Sequence record: PZ534511.1
Source: a phage
Direction: 5' to 3' (one strand)
Length of the DNA: 64,000 nt
The notes under the pieces were generated by a model. It had not been told where the DNA came from. It did not search any database and saw nothing but the letters and a program-made list of their open reading frames with translations. Shown in pieces: positions 43,295 to 63,949 of this stretch. Position 1 is the first letter of the stretch, and the number at the start of each line of letters is the position of its first letter. Made by a program: the position numbers and the translations under genes.

Positions 43295-46200
43295 TTAACT
43301 AGGGAAGTTTGTATAAGCTTCGAGATGGTATTGCTGGTTACCAGGTAGCATAACACCTATGCTTGCAACACCTAATGTTCTACCACCAGGGTTCCACTGA
43401 AACTTAAATCCAATCCAACCCGAGCTTCTGGCTGCATCAATGTTGTCACTGTACCCAAAAGTGGCTAGACCATCAACACCTGCTCCGAAAAGCAGTTGTA
43501 TCTGGTTCCTTGGTAGGCCAATAATTTCAGGTATGTAAGCACCAAAAAATGTAGGGTTGGTGGTTGTGGTCGGATTGTTCATGACCGGACCGGTAAAGAC
43601 CCTCATATTGGACGTTCCTGCAGGTCTAGGGTAAGCCCCGTCAAGAGGATTTCCTTCCCAAATAAACCACTGAGGTGCCATCTGTCTGACAGTAAACGAT
43701 GTTGAAGACGTTTTGCGGCCTGCATCATCTCTAACTACAAACTTTATGGTGACATTCCCAGTAGCTTTAAATGTTACCAGCCCTGTGGTGGCATCCACTG
43801 TTGCAATGTTGGTATTACTACTTTCCCAAGTCTTTCTAATCCCGGATACGTTGGAAGGGGTGATAGAAGGTTCCTGCATCTGCAGTTTACCGCCCACAAT
43901 CCCTATGCCGTTGCCCGGATTATACAGCACACCGACCTCGTCTATAATGTTCCCTGCTTTGAGACTATACTTCCTTGAGAAGTTGTAAGTTCCGTTATAA
44001 GTGTGTGTCCCTGAGAATGTGACATCTGCCTTCCCGTAAGAGATGCAAACCAACGCATACTTCCTGTCAGGCAACGTTTCTCCAGTCTCTGGGTGAGTTT
44101 TACCTACCTGGAACACACTCGGGTCAGTAGAGTCGTGACTATCACTAACGGAGCTTGGACCGCCCATCAACTGTGACAAACAATTCCTTACCCATGTCCA
44201 GTTATTATCGCTGGAGAAGTCCACAGTCAAATCAAACACAACCCACTCATTTGGCTTCCACACAGGTGTTGCAATGGACTTGCCTACACCGCCTCCTTGG
44301 AGTGTTGCCGACTGTTCGGTGATCAGTGCCGCATAGGCCAGAGTTCCTAAACTCAGAGTCTGGCTTGCTGTCCTCACTACCTTAGAATCAGCATCTGTGA
44401 AGTTGTTGATGATTTGGAATGTGCCATAAGTGTTTTTACAGGTAATTCTGGCGTTCAGCGTGTCAATCTTCCTCACATCTGCCATAGCAGTGTTAGACAC
44501 AGAGAAGTCAGAAGCTTTAGCTGAGTTTGCCGCAACAGCAGGATCAACGTTAAGAGTTGCGTTGAACTGACAGGCAGGGGTAACCAGCAGCTTGTTATCA
44601 CCTATTTGCTTCCATGAAATACTTTGGACAGGTAGATTCCATTTAATACCTGAGAAAACTTTAGCAACCCTTGGCCCCAAAGCTCCAGTCCTGTTGTCTT
44701 TACAGCACATAGACATGGTGATCGTTGACGGAGTTGCCTGACCGAACAATTCCTGTGCTTTTGCAGAGGACATGGTGTAGAAATTGTCCTTAACAAACTC
44801 ATCAGCGGCTAAAGATCCATCAGCCCTCCACCACTGGACCTGATACCCTGTTTTATCCCAGCCTCCAACCTGCTTCAAGTCCTCCCAAGAGATTTCCAGA
44901 TCCCCCGTGGTAGGGTTGATTGCAGCAGTTCCTGGTGTACCGGATGACCACAATGGGATATCAAACCACGCAGGTTTAACAGATTGCACTGCATTAGGAC
45001 CTATTGCAGCAGCAAGTTGTTGACCCATCAGCACGCGAGCATCTTTCACCAGGCCCCATTCTATCATAGACCCAGAGTAACCTTCTTTCTTGTAGGCAGA
45101 GGATCCGTTCAAATGGATGAGCCTGCTGCAGTCGAAGCCATACGCTCCACCACCGTTAGGATCTGCAAAGTTGGTTATGATTCTATCCCTAATATTTTTC
45201 CATGCCCTACCTCCAATCTCGTAGTCATGGTCATAACATCTTTGCAACGTTGTCCAGCAAATGATTGCCATTCTTCTGCCGCCTGTGAACCCGAAAGCGC
45301 CGTCATTCAGCTCTTTCCACAGGTAACAGTTGGTTGTCCACATAGCCCTGTGGATATTGAACCAGTTTATAGATTTGGCTGAGTTGTTCCACTGAGTCCC
45401 AGGTAATTCAGGCCACACTGCATTGACTAGCATGTCCTCTGTACCGGCATCTATTAAGAAGCCTCTTACCTTCTTGCCCATACCTACCCTGTCTTTAGCA
45501 ATCCAATTGCCAAACAGTCTCAGTTTTGGACCATAAACAACATCCTCTGGGTGCTCAAAAGAGACATACTTTAAGTAGATTGTTGGGTCACCGTAGGTGC
45601 CATCACAAACACTTTTGTGCATGTTTTCGCCAAGGTCTAGACGAAGCCCCGTCACTACTTTAGACGTGTCGGTGAATTTGTCTGTTAAGTCAAATTCATA
45701 CCACCACCACCCACCACCTAGCATAAATTTCTTGCATCGCACAGCGTCTGTGTCAGATATTCTCTTATCCCCTGCAAAAGGTGAATCAGCAAACTGATAG
45801 TGCAGAGCAGTCTCAAATAGGTGGGTGGAAGTTCCGTTCTCTGCAAGAACTTGCTTACCTATCAGATCGCACTTAATGATCATCACAACACGCTTGTATC
45901 CGTTTGTTACCGGAACTTGCATAGATATGGATGTTCCATCCATGTTCGATCTTAGATCACTCATGATGATATAGGGGTCGACAGCGTTGCCTAAAGTTTC
46001 AGGCCCTGGAATTATCTTGTATTTCTTGACCTGGCCCATAAATCTGTCACTGGCGTAAGTTGCAGCCTCAAAACAAGAGCCACCACCAGGTAATTCTCCA
46101 GGTCCCCAGAAAAATGCCCCATAGCAGTTATAGAACCACTTATTAGGGTCGTATTTGTTCTTGAAGGTCTGGACCTCGTTGGCCTGTTTTGTCAAGAAAA

Positions 46201-48922
46201 CCTGCGTGTCTGTGAAGATTGCAGGGTTTACTCTCGCCTGTCTTGGAGGGTAACCTGTAGTTTGGTTAAACCACAAATTACAAGAGTAATCCCTCATATA
46301 GTCATAATCAGAGTATTTGTTTACATCTTCGTTCCAACACATGTTTAGGTTGGTACCGCCCATGCATACAATATATTCTGCGACATACTTATCACTTCTG
46401 GTAGGAATACCTATGAACCATCTGTTAACAGGCTCATCCCAAGCTGTGCGCTCATCTTTAACGCAGATAGCAATCCAGTCATGTGTTCCTGTTTTCTTGC
46501 ACACATCTCGCTTCATACCATAGTAGAACTCTTTAGTATTCGGCTCAGGTGCATTTATCAGGTAACTCCATGCCTGATTTGCATAAGTTCCATTGGTGCG
46601 TGGATCATGATCAAAGGCATACATGATGATCCTTTCCCCACCAAGATGTTCGCCAAGAGTAACTTTGACATTCACATCGCCGTAACCATTGCGAACAACA
46701 TCCATATTATCAATAGAGATACCTCTGGGCGTGTAGGCAATTTTCAGCGAGTTATCTTCACTAGTGCCGCCAAGTGTAATCCCTATGTTGTTTGTTGTCC
46801 CGTCGACATATCTTACTGTAGCTTCCCAGCGTATTCCGAAATACCCTGCATCATGGCTGACAATTTTCAGTGTACGAGCTCCTGGGTGAGGTTTTCCAGG
46901 ATCAGGCCAAGGGTCTGGGTGTTCGTGAACAGTCAACGACGTTCCGTTCTGCTCATTAACCTGCAACATTTTACCACCCTTGCCATTAGGATTGAACTCC
47001 CACAAGGCTTGTGTTTTCACAATATTGTCATACGTGGCGCGTCTTTGATCGTAGATCTCTTGGGTCACATCATAAGTGACTGATCCAGCATCCATTCTGT
47101 GGAGTCTGACCATATACGATGTATCCCCTTCTACTGCAGGCTGGGTCCCATTCAGCCCAAAGTATACAGTATCATTAACATGGAACTGTTTGTTTCTACC
47201 GACAGTATGCCATTTACCATCAGACGGGTACGCAGGAACTATGGTGTTCCAGTTCAAAGTCCTTGTCGTATGGGTTCTGCCTGTGCCATGCTTGTCATGA
47301 TAGGTTATTTTTACAGAGTACAGGCCACGTCTGTTAACATTTCTGTTATACTGGGTGACAACAACTTCATTGGCCCCTCCGTGGTTCCAGTTGGTGGAGA
47401 ATTGGTAATTTGCATCTGTAACAACCGTGCCTGCAGCATTTACCAGTTCAATCTTGTCAATAATGAACGTAGCCCCCTCTGGCTGAGGCTTCAATTTCAT
47501 CTTGACCGTGTCACCAATGTAAATATTGCTAACGCTGCTAACACCGTTAACGTCGAAAATATCCTCAACACCCCAACTGTCTACCGGGACATTTTTATAC
47601 CAATTCTCCGGAATCTCTGTGAACCCTTGGCTGTTAAGTCTGCCGCCAAAGAGGTTATTAGATCCTGTAAAACTTCCCCTTGGGATACCTGACCACCAAA
47701 GTTTACCATTAACAACAGTAAAGGTACCTAAGAAACCTTCTCTGTGGATGCCTTGGAAATAAACACTCTCTGTCCAGCTGACTGGCAGGCGTTGCTCAAC
47801 ATATTTAGCTGTAGCAAGAGCTTGATAGTGGATAAAATCGGCCCTAGGACTATTGTTTGCAGATTGTGCACCAATATCATTACATAAGTTGCGAGAGAAC
47901 CCACGATACTGCTTAGTGCCATTATTGAAGAAAATGCCACTTGTGCCGTACCCACGAGCCATCATTACCTCATGGGTGTAGGTGATATTCAGTTCCCGCC
48001 ATGTATCATCTCCCCAAATGTTTTGACCATAAAATACGTTAACAAGCTGCTGGTCATCGGGTCTATGCATCCTCTGTGTAGCAATTACTGCCCCGTTAGG
48101 ACCACACATAAACCCTTTCCACTCCTCATCTGCAGGAATGCCCCTCAAATCGTTACGAGTAATCTGCACAGGAGGCCAAACAAGGTCGTTTCTACTGTTA
48201 TTTCTCAGAAAGTCGTAACCTGCAATCCAGAATCCGTTAGGACCACCAAAAATAACCGAGTTGTCATGAACTTCACAATTAATTCTTGGATTTTTCCAAG
48301 GACCTGTCTCTGGACTTTCAGATGTTTCACCGATCTTAACTGGAGTAGCGTGTTGACTTTTGTCAACATGAAGAGAGCCGTAAGTATTATTGCCAGAGCC
48401 GTACAGGTGAAGCATACCATCAGCCTCTGGTGCAGCAATTACCCACACGGTATTGTTTACGCCACCCATTACTTCAACAAGTCTCTCAGGATGGGTGTCC
48501 AAATGCAACCCTGTTACGATCTGTTCCGGCAAAGGTGTCCACTCTCTGACACAAACATCGTTTCCACCTGCTGCCTCCGATCCGATAAGACCAGCTGTGC
48601 AACCAATATAGAAAAATTTATTATCGAATGTGCGGATTACAAATGCACGGTCAGCTCTCCAAACATGGTCTACGTTCCAAGCTGCCTCATTAGGATAGTT
48701 TATTGTATCAAGATCTCCAGTCCGACACTCTCCGAACCTATTATAGCCAGTAATATTAAGCTGACCATCATCAAAAAGTATAGCTAAGCTATTTACATAG
48801 GATACTGTGTTGCTTGTACCATCACTGTTGTCTATTGGGTATGACAGAACAGCAAGTTCCTTAATTCCACCCCTCTTATCGAGGAAATGACGACCAAGTT
48901 TTAGCAAAGGGATTGGAAGCAT
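43295..48922 (-). CDS. giant tail fibre / host-specificity adhesin (1875 aa) with Ig-like (Big_2-type) domains
   Basis: Single uninterrupted ORF; Ig-like segment NIATVDATTGLVTFKATGNVTIKFVVRDDAGRKTSSTSFTV; Gly/Asn/Thr/Trp-rich beta-rich composition; last gene of the tail module. Confidence 0.6.
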   Translation of the reverse strand: MLPIPLLKLGRHFLDKRGGIKELAVLSYPIDNSDGTSNTVSYVNSLAILFDDGQLNITGYNRFGECRTGDLDTINYPNEAAWNVDHVWRADRAFVIRTFDNKFFYIGCTAGLIGSEAAGGNDVCVREWTPLPEQIVTGLHLDTHPERLVEVMGGVNNTVWVIAAPEADGMLHLYGSGNNTYGSLHVDKSQHATPVKIGETSESPETGPWKNPRINCEVHDNSVIFGGPNGFWIAGYDFLRNNSRNDLVWPPVQITRNDLRGIPADEEWKGFMCGPNGAVIATQRMHRPDDQQLVNVFYGQNIWGDDTWRELNITYTHEVMMARGYGTSGIFFNNGTKQYRGFSRNLCNDIGAQSANNSPRADFIHYQALATAKYVEQRLPVSWTESVYFQGIHREGFLGTFTVVNGKLWWSGIPRGSFTGSNNLFGGRLNSQGFTEIPENWYKNVPVDSWGVEDIFDVNGVSSVSNIYIGDTVKMKLKPQPEGATFIIDKIELVNAAGTVVTDANYQFSTNWNHGGANEVVVTQYNRNVNRRGLYSVKITYHDKHGTGRTHTTRTLNWNTIVPAYPSDGKWHTVGRNKQFHVNDTVYFGLNGTQPAVEGDTSYMVRLHRMDAGSVTYDVTQEIYDQRRATYDNIVKTQALWEFNPNGKGGKMLQVNEQNGTSLTVHEHPDPWPDPGKPHPGARTLKIVSHDAGYFGIRWEATVRYVDGTTNNIGITLGGTSEDNSLKIAYTPRGISIDNMDVVRNGYGDVNVKVTLGEHLGGERIIMYAFDHDPRTNGTYANQAWSYLINAPEPNTKEFYYGMKRDVCKKTGTHDWIAICVKDERTAWDEPVNRWFIGIPTRSDKYVAEYIVCMGGTNLNMCWNEDVNKYSDYDYMRDYSCNLWFNQTTGYPPRQARVNPAIFTDTQVFLTKQANEVQTFKNKYDPNKWFYNCYGAFFWGPGELPGGGSCFEAATYASDRFMGQVKKYKIIPGPETLGNAVDPYIIMSDLRSNMDGTSISMQVPVTNGYKRVVMIIKCDLIGKQVLAENGTSTHLFETALHYQFADSPFAGDKRISDTDAVRCKKFMLGGGWWWYEFDLTDKFTDTSKVVTGLRLDLGENMHKSVCDGTYGDPTIYLKYVSFEHPEDVVYGPKLRLFGNWIAKDRVGMGKKVRGFLIDAGTEDMLVNAVWPELPGTQWNNSAKSINWFNIHRAMWTTNCYLWKELNDGAFGFTGGRRMAIICWTTLQRCYDHDYEIGGRAWKNIRDRIITNFADPNGGGAYGFDCSRLIHLNGSSAYKKEGYSGSMIEWGLVKDARVLMGQQLAAAIGPNAVQSVKPAWFDIPLWSSGTPGTAAINPTTGDLEISWEDLKQVGGWDKTGYQVQWWRADGSLAADEFVKDNFYTMSSAKAQELFGQATPSTITMSMCCKDNRTGALGPRVAKVFSGIKWNLPVQSISWKQIGDNKLLVTPACQFNATLNVDPAVAANSAKASDFSVSNTAMADVRKIDTLNARITCKNTYGTFQIINNFTDADSKVVRTASQTLSLGTLAYAALITEQSATLQGGGVGKSIATPVWKPNEWVVFDLTVDFSSDNNWTWVRNCLSQLMGGPSSVSDSHDSTDPSVFQVGKTHPETGETLPDRKYALVCISYGKADVTFSGTHTYNGTYNFSRKYSLKAGNIIDEVGVLYNPGNGIGIVGGKLQMQEPSITPSNVSGIRKTWESSNTNIATVDATTGLVTFKATGNVTIKFVVRDDAGRKTSSTSFTVRQMAPQWFIWEGNPLDGAYPRPAGTSNMRVFTGPVMNNPTTTTNPTFFGAYIPEIIGLPRNQIQLLFGAGVDGLATFGYSDNIDAARSSGWIGFKFQWNPGGRTLGVASIGVMLPGNQQYHLEAYTNFPS

Positions 48923-48972: not shown

Positions 48973-50718
48973 TTAACGTTGTGCAATTACTACGTCTACG
49001 ATATCACCAACACCACAATATGTTAATTGCAGCAAGGTAACACTATTAGCCTTGTTATTAATAACAGGCGTTGCCGACAGGATAGCATACTTATCGTGCA
49101 AAGTCACGTTGTGACCTACAGCATCCTGAATGACATAGATAACCGCAGTGAATGGATAAGGTTTATCTTCCGCTGATGTACCAGGCCATTGTCCTATTGT
49201 AAAATCCCCTTTCGCGTGGACAACATACATACTGGCCTGCCCGTTAGGTGTCCATGTCCCACTGGACGCGTCAACCTCCTCTAAATCAAAATCTACCTTT
49301 CCTGCGTGGAAAGTAGGGGCAGTAATGGTTTTACCCGCCTCAATTTCTTGAGAGGTGGTTATCTTGCCACTGGAGTTAATGCCATTACAAACAAAGTTGA
49401 CATTAGAGAAGTCTGGCAGCCACCCAGTCACTGTGCCGGATATTTCAAGGTTGTGAAGGTAGGTGGTGCCCGTCCCTGCTGCGTTTAAACTAACATCTCC
49501 ATTTACCTGCAAGTTTCTGGTAACGTTGCAGTTTTCAGAGTTTGCAGTTGTTGCAGTTAAAGTAGTGGTTGTCAGCTCGGTAATTACACCTTTGTTGGCT
49601 GTAAGCCCTTCCCCTTCAAAAGTTGCACGCTCATTGACTCTTAGGGTATTCAGAGCTATGTTTTGGATAGAGGCTGTACCTCGAATAACTACAGATCCGC
49701 CAACTTCTAAATCACCATTTATTAATGCGTCCCCCGTGCTTTCAATATAGCTAGGGTAAATCATGGTGCCATCGACAGAGTAGGTTATCCCTGTAACAGT
49801 GCCTGTCACCTCAAGGTTCTTAACCCTGGTGGTTCCATCTACCTGCAATGTCGGTTCGGTTGCTGCCTTCATGGCATTACCACGAATGTACACGTAGTCA
49901 AAAAAGTTATTACCTAGACCATCAAAATGCACATCGTTATTATTAGCCACTGGTTTCCCAGAAGTTATAGTGTCAGCTATAACCCTGTGGGTGGACACTT
50001 CATGAGGTTGCAGCTCTGTGCTTCTCCAGTCTGCATGCTTAGGATCACTCCACGCAAAAGTAAGTGTAGAAGTATTTGCCGTGAGGATTAGGTTCCTGAA
50101 GCGTGCAGTAGAATCTGCTCCATTAACAGGCCCATGTAAGGTGAGTGTGCCACCAACTATAGTGTTAGCAAGTTCTGTAAGACCTTTTACCACCAAAGAT
50201 CCTACAGTAACTTTCATTCCCTCCATGGCTTCAAATATGCTATCCACATAGTCAACAACAAACTCTGTGTTTGCTATAGACTCGGATTTGTCGTCCATTG
50301 GAGGCGTAGGTACTCGCGGGTCACCTTCGAACCTCGGACTGTTAAGTTTTGCGTAGTATTTTGCCATTACTGCAGAATCGGTATATAATCTCCAGTTTGG
50401 AGATTGTGAAGGATCTGCTGGCATTCTAACCGGGTTAGATTTTGATGCTGCGGGAGCGTACCACCACTGAGGGCCTGTGTCCCCTTTAAACTCGTACAGC
50501 TGGTTAAAAACTGTTGTGGATGCACCATACGCCCAAGGGATCGGTGGCGTTTTAAAATAAAGGGTGTCAAGCATGGCTTTTCGTACCGTAGGGATGGTGG
50601 TCCCATCCTCTACGACAACTTCATCCACAGCGTTACCGTTGACAATCAGGTGCAAACGTTCAGAATCAACAATTACTTGATCTACCGCCTGCTCAAAGCT
50701 TGTCATGTCTTGCGCCAT
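48973..50718 (-). CDS. tail fibre / tailspike protein (581 aa)
   Basis: Thr/Gly/Asn-rich repetitive beta-strand composition; position in the tail module. Confidence 0.5.
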   Translation of the reverse strand: MAQDMTSFEQAVDQVIVDSERLHLIVNGNAVDEVVVEDGTTIPTVRKAMLDTLYFKTPPIPWAYGASTTVFNQLYEFKGDTGPQWWYAPAASKSNPVRMPADPSQSPNWRLYTDSAVMAKYYAKLNSPRFEGDPRVPTPPMDDKSESIANTEFVVDYVDSIFEAMEGMKVTVGSLVVKGLTELANTIVGGTLTLHGPVNGADSTARFRNLILTANTSTLTFAWSDPKHADWRSTELQPHEVSTHRVIADTITSGKPVANNNDVHFDGLGNNFFDYVYIRGNAMKAATEPTLQVDGTTRVKNLEVTGTVTGITYSVDGTMIYPSYIESTGDALINGDLEVGGSVVIRGTASIQNIALNTLRVNERATFEGEGLTANKGVITELTTTTLTATTANSENCNVTRNLQVNGDVSLNAAGTGTTYLHNLEISGTVTGWLPDFSNVNFVCNGINSSGKITTSQEIEAGKTITAPTFHAGKVDFDLEEVDASSGTWTPNGQASMYVVHAKGDFTIGQWPGTSAEDKPYPFTAVIYVIQDAVGHNVTLHDKYAILSATPVINNKANSVTLLQLTYCGVGDIVDVVIAQR

Positions 50719-50727
50719 GATTTCTCC

Positions 50728-50994
50728 TTAAGCTTTTTGCTCTTCGTTTTTAACGTGGTCAGGGTGCTGGCAACCCCACCGGAGCGAGATGAATTTGCTA
50801 ATAAGCTGGGGGCAAGCTACTGAAGGCGCGTATATCCACGCATACCATTCAGGAAGCGTATCATTATACCCCATATGAATAAACACCCCAGTCATCACCG
50901 CCATGCCTATGTTCGACCATAGCTTAGATTGGGACACTTTCGTAGGGTCATCAGATGCCGCAACCAGTCCCCATAAAAACTGAGTTAGTTTCAT
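50728..50994 (-). CDS. hypothetical small membrane protein
   Basis: Predicted TM segment WSNIGMAVMTGVFIHMGY; sits between fibre genes. Confidence 0.4.
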   Translation of the reverse strand: MKLTQFLWGLVAASDDPTKVSQSKLWSNIGMAVMTGVFIHMGYNDTLPEWYAWIYAPSVACPQLISKFISLRWGCQHPDHVKNEEQKA

Positions 50995-51005
50995 TTACCC
51001 TCTTT

Positions 51006-52052
51006 TTAAGCATAAGATATAGTGATCCATTGACCATTTACAAGTTTTTGGATAGCACCTGTCCAGTAATCACCTTGATAAGGGTGTTTATAAGCGTAGT
51101 TACCAGAGCACATCACATGTCCAGGGTAGACTCTTGACTCTCTGTAGGTGGTTTTAAAACGGTTTGCTATCCTTACATCATCAACCCCTCTGCTAGGCAT
51201 AGGGATAGTAAGGTTACCGCTACTGTCTGCGCCGTTACCATTTACCCTGCGGACCACGTTTCTTCCACCAACTGTTGCATATTGGCCCCTGACGGTTTCA
51301 TCGTTACAATCAACTCTTCCACCTATTTGAGCGCTTCCGCAGGATTGTTGTCCATTAACAGTGGCTCTTGGTATCGTGACCGCATTGGCATTTGCAGAGG
51401 AACTTTTTGCATCGTTGCATTCAAGATTTCCTTGGATAGCCAGTCTTGCACGGTTGGCAGTTATAGCATTGAGCTTCATAGCTGAAAACACAGGCTGCCC
51501 ACCAGAAGGTTGAAATCTCCAACGGAACCCATCTATTTGGTGAGAAGGATCATCAAGGTCTGTGCCGTCAGCACCACCGATGTTGTCCATAATCCAGAAA
51601 TCCATCGTCGTCTTGTCTGGAGTTATGGTGGTATATATTGCCGCACTGTCTGTTGACGCAGATGCAAACTCGATTCTTTGAAGACCTAAAGTTTGAGTCT
51701 GAGTCATTATGTCTCCAGACTTGTCAACATATAGATCGTCCATTTCTTCAGGTGAGTATACATTGAGAACTTGACGTGCAGCAGCTTTGTCTGGAACGTC
51801 TGCTAGATTATTAGTGACCCTTAAGAATCTATTATCCCATCCTGGGACAACATCTTCTGTTAAATGCTTCAACCACGCAGAAAGCATGTGAAGTTCAAAG
51901 TTAACAACTTCACATGCCATTCTTTGTGTCATATCCCAACCTTTCAATCTCTCTTCTTTTTTTGGTTGAGATTTATTCAACTCTCCCGTATTTTCAAGCA
52001 CAACATCCTGATTGGCCCAAATATCAAGAGGGATAACTGGTTTAGTCATCAC
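51006..52052 (-). CDS. tail fibre protein, paralogue 2 (348 aa)
   Basis: N-terminus (PLDIWANQDVVL..KGWDMTQ) and C-terminus (QKLVNGQWITISYA) conserved with 53064..54104; 30 bp identical DNA at the 3' ends (51011-51040 vs 53069-53098). Confidence 0.6.
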   Translation of the reverse strand: MMTKPVIPLDIWANQDVVLENTGELNKSQPKKEERLKGWDMTQRMACEVVNFELHMLSAWLKHLTEDVVPGWDNRFLRVTNNLADVPDKAAARQVLNVYSPEEMDDLYVDKSGDIMTQTQTLGLQRIEFASASTDSAAIYTTITPDKTTMDFWIMDNIGGADGTDLDDPSHQIDGFRWRFQPSGGQPVFSAMKLNAITANRARLAIQGNLECNDAKSSSANANAVTIPRATVNGQQSCGSAQIGGRVDCNDETVRGQYATVGGRNVVRRVNGNGADSSGNLTIPMPSRGVDDVRIANRFKTTYRESRVYPGHVMCSGNYAYKHPYQGDYWTGAIQKLVNGQWITISYA

Positions 52053-52138
52053 GTTCTCCTGAGAAAATTCCTTAGGACTATTTTAACACTTTAGAGAACA
52101 AAATGCAAGAACGGAGTCCTTTCCGTTCTGACCTTTGT

Positions 52139-52453
52139 TTACCTTTTACTATGCTCTACGAGCATGTGCAAAATCTTTTGTACATCAGCTCGGATGCCGG
52201 AGACATCTGTCCTGACATCCTGCTTAAGGTCGTTAATATCGGCCTCTAGCTTGCTTAACCGAGTCTCGATAACGGAATCAAGTCTATCTTTTGTAACCAT
52301 ACTGTTTTTCACTAAGATGAGGTCTTTCTCCAGCTCATCCAACCTCTTGGAAATGCCTTTCCATTTGGTGTGCCACTGGTTGAAAGCCCATACACAGATC
52401 GGGACAACGGTACCCATGCAGATACCGTACAATGCCGCCAAATCCAACTCCAC
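52139..52453 (-). CDS. hypothetical membrane-anchored coiled-coil protein
   Basis: N-terminal TM LAALYGICMGTVVPICVWAF followed by heptad-like region. Confidence 0.4.
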   Translation of the reverse strand: MELDLAALYGICMGTVVPICVWAFNQWHTKWKGISKRLDELEKDLILVKNSMVTKDRLDSVIETRLSKLEADINDLKQDVRTDVSGIRADVQKILHMLVEHSKR

Positions 52454-52464
52454 AACACCTCCTC

Positions 52465-53049
52465 TTAGAGGGTAGGTCGCTCCGGGAAGAAAATGTCAGG
52501 GGCTTTAGATGTATCTATTTCAAGAAGTTTTACCCTGTACATTTTCAAATCTCTGATGTTACGTTTCTGGTCATCAGTAAGATCATATTCAAGGTCAATC
52601 ATGTCTTGATAGGCACCAATTCTAGCAGTAGCCCAAGCAAGTTCTGTCTCTATGACACCCTCTGCCTGTTGAACAAAGAATTCATTGTCTGTGACAAATT
52701 CATCACCAACTAAACGCAAAGCGTCGTGGTGAAGCATAATGTTTTCTGGTACCTCTTCTTTTTTGGCGATAACCACACGAAGACCTGGAGCAGGCCATAA
52801 GGCATCAGGTTCTTCTGTAGATGTCTTAAGAATTCCCTTCTCGTCAACAAGTAGGAAGATACACCCTGGATTTTCTTGTCGTAATGTTCGTGACTGCACA
52901 TACCAATCACCATCATCATTACGTAAAAAATACCCAGTGTATGCGGTGTAATCCTCGACCTCTTGAGGGGTCAGCTCCTTGGTTTCCTTGTTGGAGTAGT
53001 ATTCGCCAGATCCCGGTTGGTAAAGTTTAAACTCTTGAAGTATTTTCAT
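52465..53049 (-). CDS. putative tail fibre assembly/chaperone protein
   Basis: Immediately downstream of a fibre gene; size about 190 aa; assignment mainly by synteny. Confidence 0.35.
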   Translation of the reverse strand: MKILQEFKLYQPGSGEYYSNKETKELTPQEVEDYTAYTGYFLRNDDGDWYVQSRTLRQENPGCIFLLVDEKGILKTSTEEPDALWPAPGLRVVIAKKEEVPENIMLHHDALRLVGDEFVTDNEFFVQQAEGVIETELAWATARIGAYQDMIDLEYDLTDDQKRNIRDLKMYRVKLLEIDTSKAPDIFFPERPTL

Positions 53050-53063
53050 GCTAGTCCTCCGAT

Positions 53064-54104
53064 CTATGCATAATTAACAGTGATCCATTGACCATTTACA
53101 AGTTTTTGTAAAGGTCCTGCCCAGTAGGTTGAACCACGCATCTCTTTTTTGTCACCGAAATGCCAGCCTGTGACAACGTAGCCGTTGCGGATTGGAGATT
53201 CAGAAACGCCGTCCACAAGTCTTGCACCGATTCTGATGTCTTGCACACCTGTCTGCGGGATAGTGATCGTTACATCACCGTTACCGTTAGCCGTCACTCC
53301 ATTCACGGAGCGCACCACATTTCTGTTACCGACAACACAGTGCTGGCTTCTTACAACCATACTGTCACAACTTGCACCACCATTAACATATACTGACCCA
53401 GCCGTCAACTGACTAGCCACATTACAGTTGGTGAATGTTGCTGTATTGCTGATAGTAAGGTTATTGCACCTCATGTTATCGACAACTTCAACATTGCCTA
53501 CCACTTTCAACAGCGCACGATTAGCCGTGATCGCGTTAAGGTACATCAAAGTGAACTCTGGATTAATATCCGGCTGAGTTGGCTGGAATCTCCAACGAAA
53601 CGCATCTACTGTAGATGTACCACCATCATCAAACGACCCGGTATTATCACTTAACCCAAAGTCGAGAGTTGTCTTATCTGGGCCAATAGTTGTCTCTATC
53701 CAAGCCTTATCTGTCTCGGCAGCTTTAAAGTTGATACGTTGCAACCCCAAGGGGCCTGTCATTGTATCACCTGTAACTTTTACATACCTGGCGTCTGCCT
53801 CTTCCTTAGTGATAATCCCAAGGTTTCTACGGGCAACAGGGATGTTCAAAAGATCGCTCAAGTTATTATCACGTACCAGATAACGGCCTTCTTGAGCGGG
53901 GATCTGCTCGTCAGCAATGTATTTTGCCCAAGTTCCGAGCATATTGAAAATATAGTTAAGTTCTTCACAGGATGGCTTTTGACCAAGATCCCAACCTTTT
54001 CTCCACAAATCATCAATCGGGCGTAGCCTGTTCTGTCTGTGGGTGTTAGGCAGAACCTGATCCTCCTCTGCCCAAATCTCTAATGGAAAACTAGGTTTTG
54101 ACAT
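53064..54104 (-). CDS. tail fibre protein, paralogue 1 (346 aa)
   Basis: See 51006..52052; conserved termini, divergent central region. Confidence 0.6.
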   Translation of the reverse strand: MSKPSFPLEIWAEEDQVLPNTHRQNRLRPIDDLWRKGWDLGQKPSCEELNYIFNMLGTWAKYIADEQIPAQEGRYLVRDNNLSDLLNIPVARRNLGIITKEEADARYVKVTGDTMTGPLGLQRINFKAAETDKAWIETTIGPDKTTLDFGLSDNTGSFDDGGTSTVDAFRWRFQPTQPDINPEFTLMYLNAITANRALLKVVGNVEVVDNMRCNNLTISNTATFTNCNVASQLTAGSVYVNGGASCDSMVVRSQHCVVGNRNVVRSVNGVTANGNGDVTITIPQTGVQDIRIGARLVDGVSESPIRNGYVVTGWHFGDKKEMRGSTYWAGPLQKLVNGQWITVNYA

Positions 54105-54116
54105 TTTATCTCCTGA

Positions 54117-56189
54117 TTATGAGAAGTCTGGAGGGACAACATCTTCTACATACCCTTTCAGAGCAACCTGCCCCATATGAAGCACGGTAGAATCTCTGGC
54201 TGTAACAGTGATGCTGTCAGACATTACTTGCGGGTATGCCCACACATACTGTTTTACCTCAGGGTATCTATACTCTATGGTTGCCATGTTTCCGCAGATA
54301 CATCTCCATAAAAATTCTTGGTAATTCCTGGTTGGGTCGTAGCCATATACCGGAGCAAGCTCTTTACTAGGAACGAACCCTGCAAGGTATTGTATTTCAG
54401 ACGGTTGCCAACCTAACTTAACGATAGGTATGTTTACAGACTCTTTTGCCTTTTCAATACCTCCCTGCATCACCCAATCGTAGCACTCGGTGCAGAAGAA
54501 ATCAAGAGCACCTGCTTCTTTTTTATATTGGTCAGCAAGGTTCAGCTTTTGCGTAAGCTCTGTTTCCATAATGGTTGGGAAAAACAGCAGAGCTGTCATC
54601 TGAGCTGATGCAGCGTGTGCCTTTATTGCCTTTGAAATGGCCGCAATACGAGCGCCAAGCTTACCACGACAAAATGCTACATACTTGTCGTAAACACCGC
54701 CAGTTTTAGGATCGTCAATAGTCCCAATATCTAATGCATACTCACCTGTCTCATCATAAAACGCCTGCTTTGTAGGGTAATCATAAATACAAGGTCTACG
54801 AGTATCGGTATTGTACCACCACCACGGTTCACCAACCTGCATAATCACTGGCAGGTTGTTTCTCATAGCGGCTGATGCAAAATTCTTAAATACTGCAGTA
54901 AGGAAATTCATACCCTCTTCAATGGTTGGAGACAGGAGGTAGCTACAGGGTGTATACCCTGTTTTAGCGTAGTTATCGTTCCAGTCTCTTTGGGTCCATT
55001 CCAACGGGCAGGCATCGCTGAAAAGCTCAAAACTTACAGATTGCATAACGTCGAAGTTATGTCGTTTGGCATTGTACATAAAATCATCATGCCATTTATA
55101 AGCTGCAGCGTTTAGCGCCCCTGTTCTGTTTATAGACCATTGGGTTCCTGACCATGTGTAGTCATAATAATGACTCATACCAACATAATGGTTTATGGTT
55201 CCGGTATAGCCCAGACGCTTGATATTGTTCAACACCCTTAAAGGAGATACGTTCCACATATCGTCATATGCGGTGCAGATCCCAACGTCGTGCTCTTTAA
55301 CCTGAATATTGTTAAGTTGCATCATTTTCCAGCCTGTGTCTGGCTGGAGCAGATCTAGGCGCAACTCACACTCTACATTTTCCGTTCTCGGGTCTGTGCT
55401 ATTACTTACCCAGTCTTTAGGCATAAGCGGTATTAAAATCCTTCTCACCTGTCGAGGATCAACACCCATCATGTTGTTGTTCTGATCCATCCCGACGCAG
55501 TCCTCGAAATCAATATGAATCTCTGCAACATTCTTATCCTCTGAGATGCTGACAGCATATTGAGCTAAAGGAACATAGATGATTGTGCCATCAACAAGGT
55601 CTACAGTCATAATCATCTTTTCAGGGGTGGAGAAGTTGCTGGCATTGGTTATTGACATTCTGAACCAAAGCTTGGTGTTTCTCATCTCATAGTGATCATC
55701 AAACCCAATACCGAAATGGTCATACTTGTCAACTGTTTCCCAAATGCACCCAGCCATACCTCCATATGTTCTTGACACTAAACGGTTAATACAACAGTTG
55801 TTATCTGCAACAATACAGGTACTTTCAGTCTGCTGAGTAGTTGTAACCCAATACCTTGGGTGAAACATTCTCTCCTCAACAGTATCCCAAGATATCCTGT
55901 CAAGATTCTCATCTGAAACTATTGTACATTTCGCCCTTTGTGTTCCAATCATCACCCCTTGAGATTTTGATGAAAACTCCATAAAGAAGCTTCTTGGCAA
56001 CCTGTTGGGTAATTTGTCAACAATTTCCACTGGGATCTCAATACTGGTTGCCCCAATTGGGATAGTTACATCACCCTCAACATGATTATAATCCCTACCA
56101 GGAACGGCAGTATCCTGAACTGTGCGGTAATGAAACCGTGCAGCCATTGTAGAGTAATCACGGTAAGGTTTAAAAATAGCTGTTGCCAT
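54117..56189 (-). CDS. tail/baseplate-associated structural protein (690 aa)
   Basis: Large ORF in the tail module; Trp/Tyr-rich; function not assignable by eye. Confidence 0.45.
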   Translation of the reverse strand: MATAIFKPYRDYSTMAARFHYRTVQDTAVPGRDYNHVEGDVTIPIGATSIEIPVEIVDKLPNRLPRSFFMEFSSKSQGVMIGTQRAKCTIVSDENLDRISWDTVEERMFHPRYWVTTTQQTESTCIVADNNCCINRLVSRTYGGMAGCIWETVDKYDHFGIGFDDHYEMRNTKLWFRMSITNASNFSTPEKMIMTVDLVDGTIIYVPLAQYAVSISEDKNVAEIHIDFEDCVGMDQNNNMMGVDPRQVRRILIPLMPKDWVSNSTDPRTENVECELRLDLLQPDTGWKMMQLNNIQVKEHDVGICTAYDDMWNVSPLRVLNNIKRLGYTGTINHYVGMSHYYDYTWSGTQWSINRTGALNAAAYKWHDDFMYNAKRHNFDVMQSVSFELFSDACPLEWTQRDWNDNYAKTGYTPCSYLLSPTIEEGMNFLTAVFKNFASAAMRNNLPVIMQVGEPWWWYNTDTRRPCIYDYPTKQAFYDETGEYALDIGTIDDPKTGGVYDKYVAFCRGKLGARIAAISKAIKAHAASAQMTALLFFPTIMETELTQKLNLADQYKKEAGALDFFCTECYDWVMQGGIEKAKESVNIPIVKLGWQPSEIQYLAGFVPSKELAPVYGYDPTRNYQEFLWRCICGNMATIEYRYPEVKQYVWAYPQVMSDSITVTARDSTVLHMGQVALKGYVEDVVPPDFS

Positions 56190-58377: not shown

Positions 58378-58444
58378 GTCACTCCTCCGGTATGAAAATC
58401 TCTACAAGGTATTTTACCAAATTTTGTAACAATAGTCAATCTGA

Positions 58445-63890: not shown

Positions 63891-63949
63891 TGTGCCTCCG
63901 GGTTAAACAATCATGATAGCTATTTTACCAGATTTTAAGTTAATACGCA

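Follow-up and report, generated by a model that had tools for sequence, protein, structure and literature searches.

The window analyzed here, i.e., the whole stretch of 64,000 nucleotides (nt) of phage DNA from sequence record PZ534511.1, carries between positions 51006 and 54104 two genes for tail fibres (fibre A and fibre B), which lie in the same orientation and are separated by the genes for a tail fibre assembly chaperone and for a protein of 104 amino acids (aa); a gene for an 88-aa protein follows fibre B (Table 1). A sequence-only reading of this locus had described the fibre genes as open reading frames (ORFs) of 348 and 346 aa. Both ORFs are present on the minus strand, but the length of 348 aa requires a GTG start for fibre B; initiation at the ATG at position 52049 is most likely, since every annotated relative starts there and an AGGAG sequence is found upstream at a fitting spacing. 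The same reading had placed an assembly chaperone and a membrane protein between the two fibres, and this arrangement was confirmed by a Caudo_TAP match for the former and a single hydrophobic segment in the 104-aa protein. Both fibre genes were also found to represent tail fibres of one family (phrog_4465), as had been proposed. Neither the two fibres nor the small proteins of the locus could be assigned to a Pfam or NCBIfam family.

Table 1. Features of the short tail fibre locus and its surroundings (positions in the window)
Feature	Position	Strand	Basis or remark
Fibre A, short tail fibre, 346 aa, ATG start	53064..54104	-	ORF; phrog_4465, E 1.8e-171; rV5 gp33 homologue
Fibre A tip, aa 286-332	53109..53249	-	Variable C-terminal domain, family alignment
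30-nt repeat CAAAAACTTGTAAATGGTCAATGGATCACT, copy 1 (fibre A 3' end)	53079..53108	-	Exact; encodes QKLVNGQWIT, family-wide conserved C-terminal strand
Tail fibre assembly chaperone, 194 aa	52465..53049	-	Pfam Caudo_TAP, E 1e-11; phrog_136, E 1e-36; rV5 gp32 homologue
104-aa protein	52139..52453	-	phrog_5345; one hydrophobic segment (aa 5-23), coiled-coil-like remainder; rV5 gp31 homologue
Terminator-like hairpin, 8-bp stem then T-rich tail	52108..52129	-	Consensus scan; just after 104-aa gene
Late-promoter-like motif TGTTAAAATA	52079..52088	-	Upstream of fibre B; prediction only
Fibre B, 347 aa from ATG 52049 (348 aa from GTG 52052; ORF 51006-52052)	51006..52049	-	phrog_4465, E 2e-166; rV5 gp30 homologue
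Fibre B tip, aa 288-333	51051..51188	-	33% identical to A tip
30-nt repeat CAAAAACTTGTAAATGGTCAATGGATCACT, copy 2 (fibre B 3' end)	51021..51050	-	Exact match to copy 1
88-aa small protein	50728..50994	-	phrog_1322 "membrane protein"; after fibre locus in all relatives; rV5 gp29 homologue

A megablast search with positions 50700 to 54200 as the query matched 117 phage records, of which 114 showed a single match that covered at least 80% of the query with 94.7-99.9% nucleotide identity. As nearly all of these records represent the genus Vequintavirus, the matches indicate that the window is an rV5-like coliphage of this genus. The top match (99.9% nucleotide identity) was BASEL phage DrSchubert, in which both fibre genes carry the annotation "short tail fiber protein" and the gene between them that of a "tail fiber chaperone"; the fibre A proteins of the two phages are 100% identical. 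In phage rV5, gp33 (tail fibre, 346 aa), gp32 (tail fibre assembly protein), gp31 (104-aa protein), gp30 (tail fibre, 347 aa) and gp29 (88-aa membrane protein) pair one to one with the five genes of the locus. The window thus shows the Vequintavirus gene order, i.e., fibre A, Caudo_TAP chaperone, 104-aa protein, fibre B and 88-aa protein, downstream of the baseplate genes. An identity of 42.3% between rV5 gp30 and gp33, and the possible recognition of two lipopolysaccharide (LPS) chemotypes, have been reported (Kropinski et al. 2013, PMC3606486). The homology of the Vequintavirus short fibre and chaperone genes to Mu GpS and GpU has also been described (Maffei et al. 2021, PMC8594841). Both the paralogous pair of short tail fibres and its interpretation as a dual-specificity system are hence already in the literature of 2013 and 2021.

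Two further observations were made on these records. The giant lateral fibre gene at positions 43295-48922 comprises 5628 nt (1875 aa) in the window as compared to 5457 nt in DrSchubert (locus L001, 1767-7223); the window is therefore not DrSchubert itself, and the difference lies in one allelically variable lateral fibre gene. In addition, 16 to 21 GenBank records titled "Campylobacter phage", with C. jejuni as the host, match the fibre locus (e.g., MG065655, "Campylobacter phage C2"); those among the records listed are 98-99.4% identical to the window locus, and the host label looks doubtful.

Fibre A and fibre B could be aligned over their full length with 43% identity (E 2e-94), and alignment confirmed the claim that the two proteins have a common C-terminal tail, QKLVNGQWIT[VI][NS]YA, and that their genes have 30 identical nt at the 3' ends. 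The further claim of conserved ends around a divergent middle was contradicted by the alignment. The N-terminal residues 1-110 are among the most diverged parts (38% identity) and the central residues 111-200 represent the best conserved block (59%); identity then falls to 35% for residues 201-285 and to 33% for residues 286-332, before it rises to 86% in the final 14 residues. A similar distribution was found for codons, as the same codon is used for 13 of 16 identical residues in the last 40 alignment columns as compared to 39 of 127 identical residues elsewhere in both genes.

None of 100 shuffles yielded a 30-nt match between the two genes, with up to 3 mismatches tolerated. For the same peptide in both genes and the codon usage of the phage, the probability of ten identical codons was about 1e-4; codon bias was rejected as the cause of the identity on the basis of this probability and of several non-preferred codons among those used. 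Orthologues from other genera encode the same C-terminal motif with different codons, and protein constraint alone is therefore not sufficient to explain the identity of the DNA. Among Vequintavirus genomes, the two 30-mers are exactly identical in some only (e.g., in rV5 and DrSchubert), and the paralogues differed at 0 to 4 of the 30 positions among the loci fetched.

Comparison of the window with L017, a lineage at approx. 75% nucleotide identity, revealed that codons of the terminal region changed in both paralogues together: L017 has CTG, GTC and CAG in both fibres, where fibres A and B of the window both have CTT, GTA and CAA. Codons equal between the paralogues in the window and L017 accounted for 9 of 11 codons in the tail as compared to 11 of 111 elsewhere (P = 6e-7; Fisher's exact test), and covarying codons for 3 of 11 as compared to 4 of 111 (P = 0.016). 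For the last 14 codons, the synonymous divergence (dS) was 0.26-0.27 between paralogues within a genome as compared to 0.65-0.69 between orthologues. This signal was confined to the 3' end; no gene-wide concerted evolution of A and B was detected between the window and L017 (24 "concerted" and 28 "anti" sites).

More extensive exchange was observed in related metagenomic loci (L013, L031 and L032), all of which carry the A-type tip on both fibres; in L013, the A and B tips are 79% identical to each other, as compared to 33% in the window. The fibre A genes of L031 and L032 are 98-100% identical except at nt 943-1043; in this region, fibre A of L031 matches fibre B of the same genome without mismatch over stretches of 59 and 39 nt, and 12 informative sites in a row switch ancestry. 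By this pattern, L031 has undergone a clean and recent conversion over approx. 100 nt, and these data point to gene conversion as the process by which the 3' regions of the paralogues exchange sequence in the metagenomic relatives. We consider it probable that the window encodes two paralogous short fibres of the Mu gpS/phi92 gp147/phiTE type with one chaperone, and that the 30 identical nt are the footprint of short-tract gene conversion between their genes. Conversion at the terminal strand would be tolerated, as both genes encode the same peptide there. Conversion that reaches the tips would normally be removed by selection, as it would erase the difference between them, yet in one related lineage it did become fixed.

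One alternative explanation for the 30-nt identity could be selection for a conserved RNA or DNA element (e.g., a regulatory structure, or a signal that acts on the gene that follows), which would keep the two copies alike in the absence of conversion. When the window is compared to the L013 lineage, the 30-mer of fibre B indeed shows no more than 3 changed positions out of 30, in genes that are approx. 55% identical overall, and each copy is located just upstream of the start of the next gene; the genes and ribosome-binding sites that follow the two copies are different, however, and synonymous sites within the 30-mer vary both within the genus and between lineages. No common RNA structure was found either, as the fibre A context gave a z score of -2.44 through A-specific flanks, the fibre B context a z score of -0.06 and the 30-mer itself a z score of -0.92. 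As a nucleotide element also could not account for the tract of approx. 100 nt in L031, we regard this explanation as highly improbable and gene conversion as the preferred one.

Fibre A appears to be the older of the two fibres. Its N-terminal residues 1-108 match residues 1-111 of the phiTE short tail fibre (PDB 9cuy; E 1.4e-19), and its residues 286-343 match the tip of Mu gpS (PDB 5yvq; phmmer E 1.7e-6; E 9.3e-14 with the family profile). When compared to the single fibres of Av-05, NINP13076 and PaulScherrer, fibre A showed 52-56% identity in the N-terminus and 55-57% in the tip, and it is closer to the single fibres of the sister genera than fibre B is to any protein. By sequence and gene order, fibre A corresponds to the one short tail fibre of the sister genera and the phi92-like phages, of which it is the positional orthologue. 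The tip is located between two conserved motifs, GVQDIR and P[LI]QKLVNGxW; the A-type tip is common to the short fibres of Av-05, Seunavirus and phi92-like phages (55-57% identity) as well as to fibres of 52-kb Salmonella phages, with some tblastn matches limited to residues 287-344. Fibre A would thus represent the ancestral baseplate fibre, with a gene that comes after the baseplate wedge genes and a lateral-fibre gene, an N-terminal region homologous to the phiTE wedge-docking joint, a Mu-S-like C-terminal tip and a cognate chaperone encoded next to it. The gene upstream of fibre A (54117-56189) encodes a 690-aa protein with Calx-beta and N4 gp65-like domains (non-contractile tail sheath N-terminal domain and TIM barrel; PF23844, PF23845), which matches a lateral fibre that others have tied to binding of the N4 glycan receptor.

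Receptor binding had been assigned to the middle of the two proteins by the sequence-only reading. Homology to the Mu GpS tip in its complex with GpU (PDB 5yvq) instead places the expected part at the C-terminal tip (approx. residues 286-332 in fibre A), which likely binds both receptor and chaperone. Structure prediction of both fibres had been suggested with that reading as a check. The AlphaFold2 monomer models were of low confidence (predicted local distance difference test, pLDDT, of 63 and 58 for A and B, respectively) and of use only for a Foldseek comparison with the PDB, in which their sole significant match was 5yvq_A, for fibre A (3e-7) as well as for fibre B (4.5e-6).

The locus contains one chaperone gene only, which adjoins fibre A. 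A cognate Caudo_TAP gene is located directly downstream of fibre A; fibre B instead precedes the 88-aa gene. Among relatives, similarity of the chaperones tracks similarity of the A tips. In a metagenomic clade with a single fibre (L015, L021 and L022), identity is high in the flanking genes (96-99%) and in the fibre body (79-93%) but drops to approx. 48% in the C-terminal part of the fibre and to 13-34% in the chaperone; three tips thus occur with three chaperones. By these data, tip and chaperone were exchanged together, in a clear natural case of cassette exchange; the fibre-side boundary of this cassette is the conserved GVQDIR motif. As tip and chaperone travel together in the family, the presence of a single chaperone for two tips in the window stands out. 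The terminal strand is the only C-terminal element common to fibres A and B, and the single chaperone would serve both fibres through this strand, P[LI]QKLVNGQWIT.

We also considered whether the paralogues and their common ends represent a recombination or switching device for host range, in which receptor-binding cassettes are swapped within the phage population or between phages. An exact 30-nt direct repeat, gene conversion between the paralogues of relatives, the exchange of tip and chaperone in the sister clade and the A-type tip on both fibres in the L013 lineage would all be in agreement with such a device. The longest inverted repeat between positions 48900 and 56300, however, has 19 nt with 79% complementarity; as the two genes also point in one direction, inversion is impossible, which excludes an invertible switch as in Mu. 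Recombination between the two directly repeated 30-mers would delete the chaperone gene, the 104-aa gene and most of fibre B, and no such deletion was found among approx. 114 genomes.

Both fibres also vary little within the genus. In six of the most divergent Vequintavirus genomes, the locus is collinear throughout, with 12-59 nt and 0-6 aa differences in fibre A and 39-80 nt and 10-16 aa differences in fibre B. The ratio of nonsynonymous to synonymous divergence (dN/dS) between the window and HMD-6 was 0.03 for fibre A, 0.07 for fibre B and 0.02 for each tip, which indicates that both fibres are under strong purifying selection. Proteins at least 95% identical to fibre A were found in 116 records and proteins at least 90% identical to fibre B in 117; the records listed with a near-identical copy had two matching places each, and more distant phages had one. 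A non-functional duplicate was rejected on the basis of dN/dS and of conservation across three lineages.

Near-invariance of both tips at the protein level within the genus, with dN/dS of 0.02, does not fit a switching device. No substantial allelic differences have been reported for the short fibre locus either (Maffei et al. 2021, PMC8594841), in a group of phages that all depend on the LPS core as far as its first outer-core glucose. The same study located the natural host-range variation of the genus in the large lateral fibre genes. Unchanged loci in approx. 114 genomes, together with low dN/dS, indicate that no cassette exchange or switching takes place within the genus. The proposal of cassette exchange for host-range switching, for which a comparison of the locus among relatives had been suggested, hence failed for Vequintavirus, where approx. 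114 genomes are collinear at 94.7-99.9% identity. Beyond the genus it kept some ground, in the form of 3' gene conversion in relatives and of the tip and chaperone cassette in the single-fibre clade. The exchanges seen represent rare evolutionary events and not a programmed switch, and overall we consider a host-range device very unlikely; the identical 30 bases are best read as a trace of occasional copying between the two genes.

Fibre B differs from fibre A in origin, expression and tip. In Av-05, Seunavirus and Mydovirus, the gene order is fibre, chaperone, 104-aa protein, 157-aa polytopic membrane protein, 88-aa protein and a fibre of 580-600 aa, and fibre B of Vequintavirus occupies the exact slot of the 157-aa gene. 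In the metagenomic single-fibre clade, the 104-aa and 88-aa homologues have no gene between them, and no remnant of the 157-aa membrane-protein gene was found when it was sought in the window. Depending on the lineage, the 157-aa protein (Av-05; L002, 6949-7422) is kept, absent or replaced by fibre B. Both fibre copies are also present in two deeper lineages, i.e., L017-19 and L013/L031/L032. Fibre B would thus be an old extra copy specific to this phage lineage, which replaced a membrane-protein gene.

The gap of 86 nt ahead of fibre B (52053-52138) is unusually long for this tightly packed locus. It contains a terminator-like hairpin with a predicted RNA folding energy of -17.5 kcal/mol (z = -3.67), which none of 200 shuffles matched, and the late-promoter-like motif TGTTAAAATA, at a position equivalent to that of the putative late promoter P030 listed for rV5 in Table S4C (PMC3606486). 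The motif TGKTAAAATA occurs 4 times in the window, as compared to 0.49 expected occurrences; other structural genes are preceded by further members of this motif class, at 58410-58419 and 63921-63930, and one more is located at 1700-1709. As a hairpin and a late-promoter-like motif precede the gene, fibre B appears, by these predictions, to head a separate late transcription unit.

The N-terminus of fibre B also matches the phiTE short fibre (9cuy; E 1.1e-9), but all B-type sequences are changed at 16 of 81 columns conserved in the family, and 12 of these 16 columns are within the first 100 residues, which suggests that the docking interaction of fibre B may be modified. Fibre B would begin a new late transcription unit, and its docking residues would be altered. 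In a sequence search with fibre B alone, no significant match to Mu gpS was found. The tip of fibre B shows 91% aa identity between the window and L017 and is the most conserved part of this gene (nonsynonymous divergence, dN, of 0.058 as compared to 0.12-0.27 elsewhere). An exhaustive HMMER search of 1.84 billion representative proteins with this tip returned 18 proteins, none of them closer than fibre A, and a word-indexed search matched just a 69-aa fragment; in Vequintavirus, fibre B would carry a tip found nowhere else.

The changed N-terminus raises the question of whether fibre B is an independent receptor-binding fibre at all, or whether it serves as an adaptor or branch on another fibre (e.g., the downstream 581-aa fibre) or as a subunit of mixed trimers with fibre A. 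The departure of the B-type N-terminus from the family consensus at 12 conserved positions and the placement of fibre B at the head of an apparent transcription unit that includes the 581-aa fibre gene would be consistent with such a role, as would the best conserved block between A and B (residues 111-200, 59%), and phi92-like phages are known to have complex multi-fibre baseplates (PMC13450770). Fibre B, however, keeps the complete architecture of a fibre including a Mu-S-like C-terminal region, and its tip is the most conserved part across lineages, as is expected of a ligand-binding end. To our knowledge, there is also no precedent for heterotrimers in this fibre family, which weighs against the mixed-trimer version. 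Overall, we consider an adaptor or mixed-trimer role unlikely, and two separate short fibres remain our preferred reading.

Under this reading, both fibres would be built into the virion, and each tip would recognize a conserved surface structure that does not vary, with the LPS core as its most likely location. For rV5, gp30, gp32 and gp33 are named in the text among the proteins detected by proteomics (PMC3606486). We consider dual receptor specificity of the two fibres plausible.

Several observations weigh against two independent fibres with a common chaperone and a conversion footprint. None of 5 fibre peptides searched for was found in the supplementary mass spectrometry table for rV5 (Additional file 5, 19 proteins). 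The related phage LL12 shows the same LPS-core requirement, for waaC, waaF and waaG, and loss of waaG by itself lowers plating to about 1e-6 (PMC7229145), a phenotype that argues against two independent, redundant receptors; it would agree more readily with a core region on which the two fibres both depend, or with a single essential fibre. It is also unusual to find a single chaperone alongside tips that differ this much, since tip and chaperone co-vary elsewhere in the family, and fibre B may fold without a chaperone. With regard to conversion, the covariation between the window and L017 rests on three codons only, and the 30-mers of the paralogues in the L013 lineage differ at 7 of 30 positions, which suggests that homogenization is episodic.

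A more far-reaching interpretation is that the locus represents a standing two-tip system, in which recurrent short-tract conversion anchored at the terminal strand allows a lineage either to keep two different tips (Vequintavirus) or to transfer one tip to the body of the other fibre (L013/L031), and in which fibre B docks at another baseplate site than fibre A, reads a second conserved LPS-core epitope and shares the chaperone of fibre A by means of the terminal strand. We regard this as a tentative possibility that is rather doubtful as a whole; if true, it would provide a route for intragenomic tip reassortment that is distinct from the usual exchange of tip and chaperone between phages.

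Small proteins with a membrane annotation or prediction are part of the fibre locus in all relatives and have possible roles in lysis, superinfection exclusion or fibre assembly. The 104-aa protein comes next after the chaperone in every relative examined; its 113-aa counterpart in phi92-like phages (PaulScherrer; L005, 6555-6896) shows a weak match to Rz-like spanins (phrog_739, E 5e-4). The 88-aa protein is universal in the fibre loci of relatives and has C-terminal extensions in some lineages (117-140 aa). Its "membrane" label comes from PHROG and record annotations only, as a hydrophobicity scan of this protein gave no segment over the threshold used.

Overall, these data suggest that the fibre pair is real, but ordinary and already described; replacement of the 157-aa gene, the docking changes and unique tip of fibre B and gene conversion at the 3' ends were not found in the rV5 and BASEL papers and represent modest additions. 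The conversion footprints provide a small, clean case of concerted evolution between phage receptor-binding paralogues, and the understanding of the system is unchanged by them. As rV5-like phages are common in therapeutic and biocontrol collections and probably attach irreversibly to the LPS core, as a last step, through their short fibres, the strict conservation of both paralogues, the C-terminal tip as the probable receptor-binding part, the unique B tip and the altered docking of fibre B show engineers which segments to swap or delete, in a locus that is not where the natural host-range variation of the genus lies.

Among known systems, GpS and GpU of phage Mu (PDB 5yvq; baseplate 9ki1) have a homologous tip, as residues 284-349 of the fibre family profile match residues 438-503 of gpS, and they share with the locus the terminal motif P.QK.[VI]NG.W and a Caudo_TAP chaperone gene directly downstream of the fibre gene (here of fibre A). 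Mu GpS is, however, longer (504 aa as compared to 346-347 aa for the fibres described here, which have a phiTE-type N-terminus), and in Mu the S/U and S'/U' pairs lie opposite to each other in an invertible segment with its own invertase, whereas the window has two complete genes in the same orientation and one chaperone. The phiTE short fibre (9cuy) shares the N-terminal joint with both fibres (E 2.8e-35 with the family profile); in phiTE, residues 3-92 form this joint and dock on wedge protein 1 (PMC11972413). The phi92-like phage PaulScherrer also has the A-type tip (about 57-60% identity) and a fibre gene placed after the wedge genes, and phi92 gp147 has been modelled as the downward "fibre III" and proposed to mediate irreversible binding (PMC13450770). 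Phages phi92 and phiTE have one such fibre each, as compared to two in Vequintavirus and two related lineages. Phage T4 gp12 likely has the same role, i.e., it attaches to the LPS core as a short fibre of the baseplate once primary adsorption has taken place, and similarity to gp12 by HHpred has been reported (PMC3606486). T4 gp12 was absent from the results of a PDB sequence search (E up to 1) and a profile search (E up to 0.01) as well as from the Foldseek matches listed, and it depends on chaperone gp57A as compared to Caudo_TAP here; T4 gp12 is likely a functional analogue of the two fibres rather than a demonstrated member of their family.

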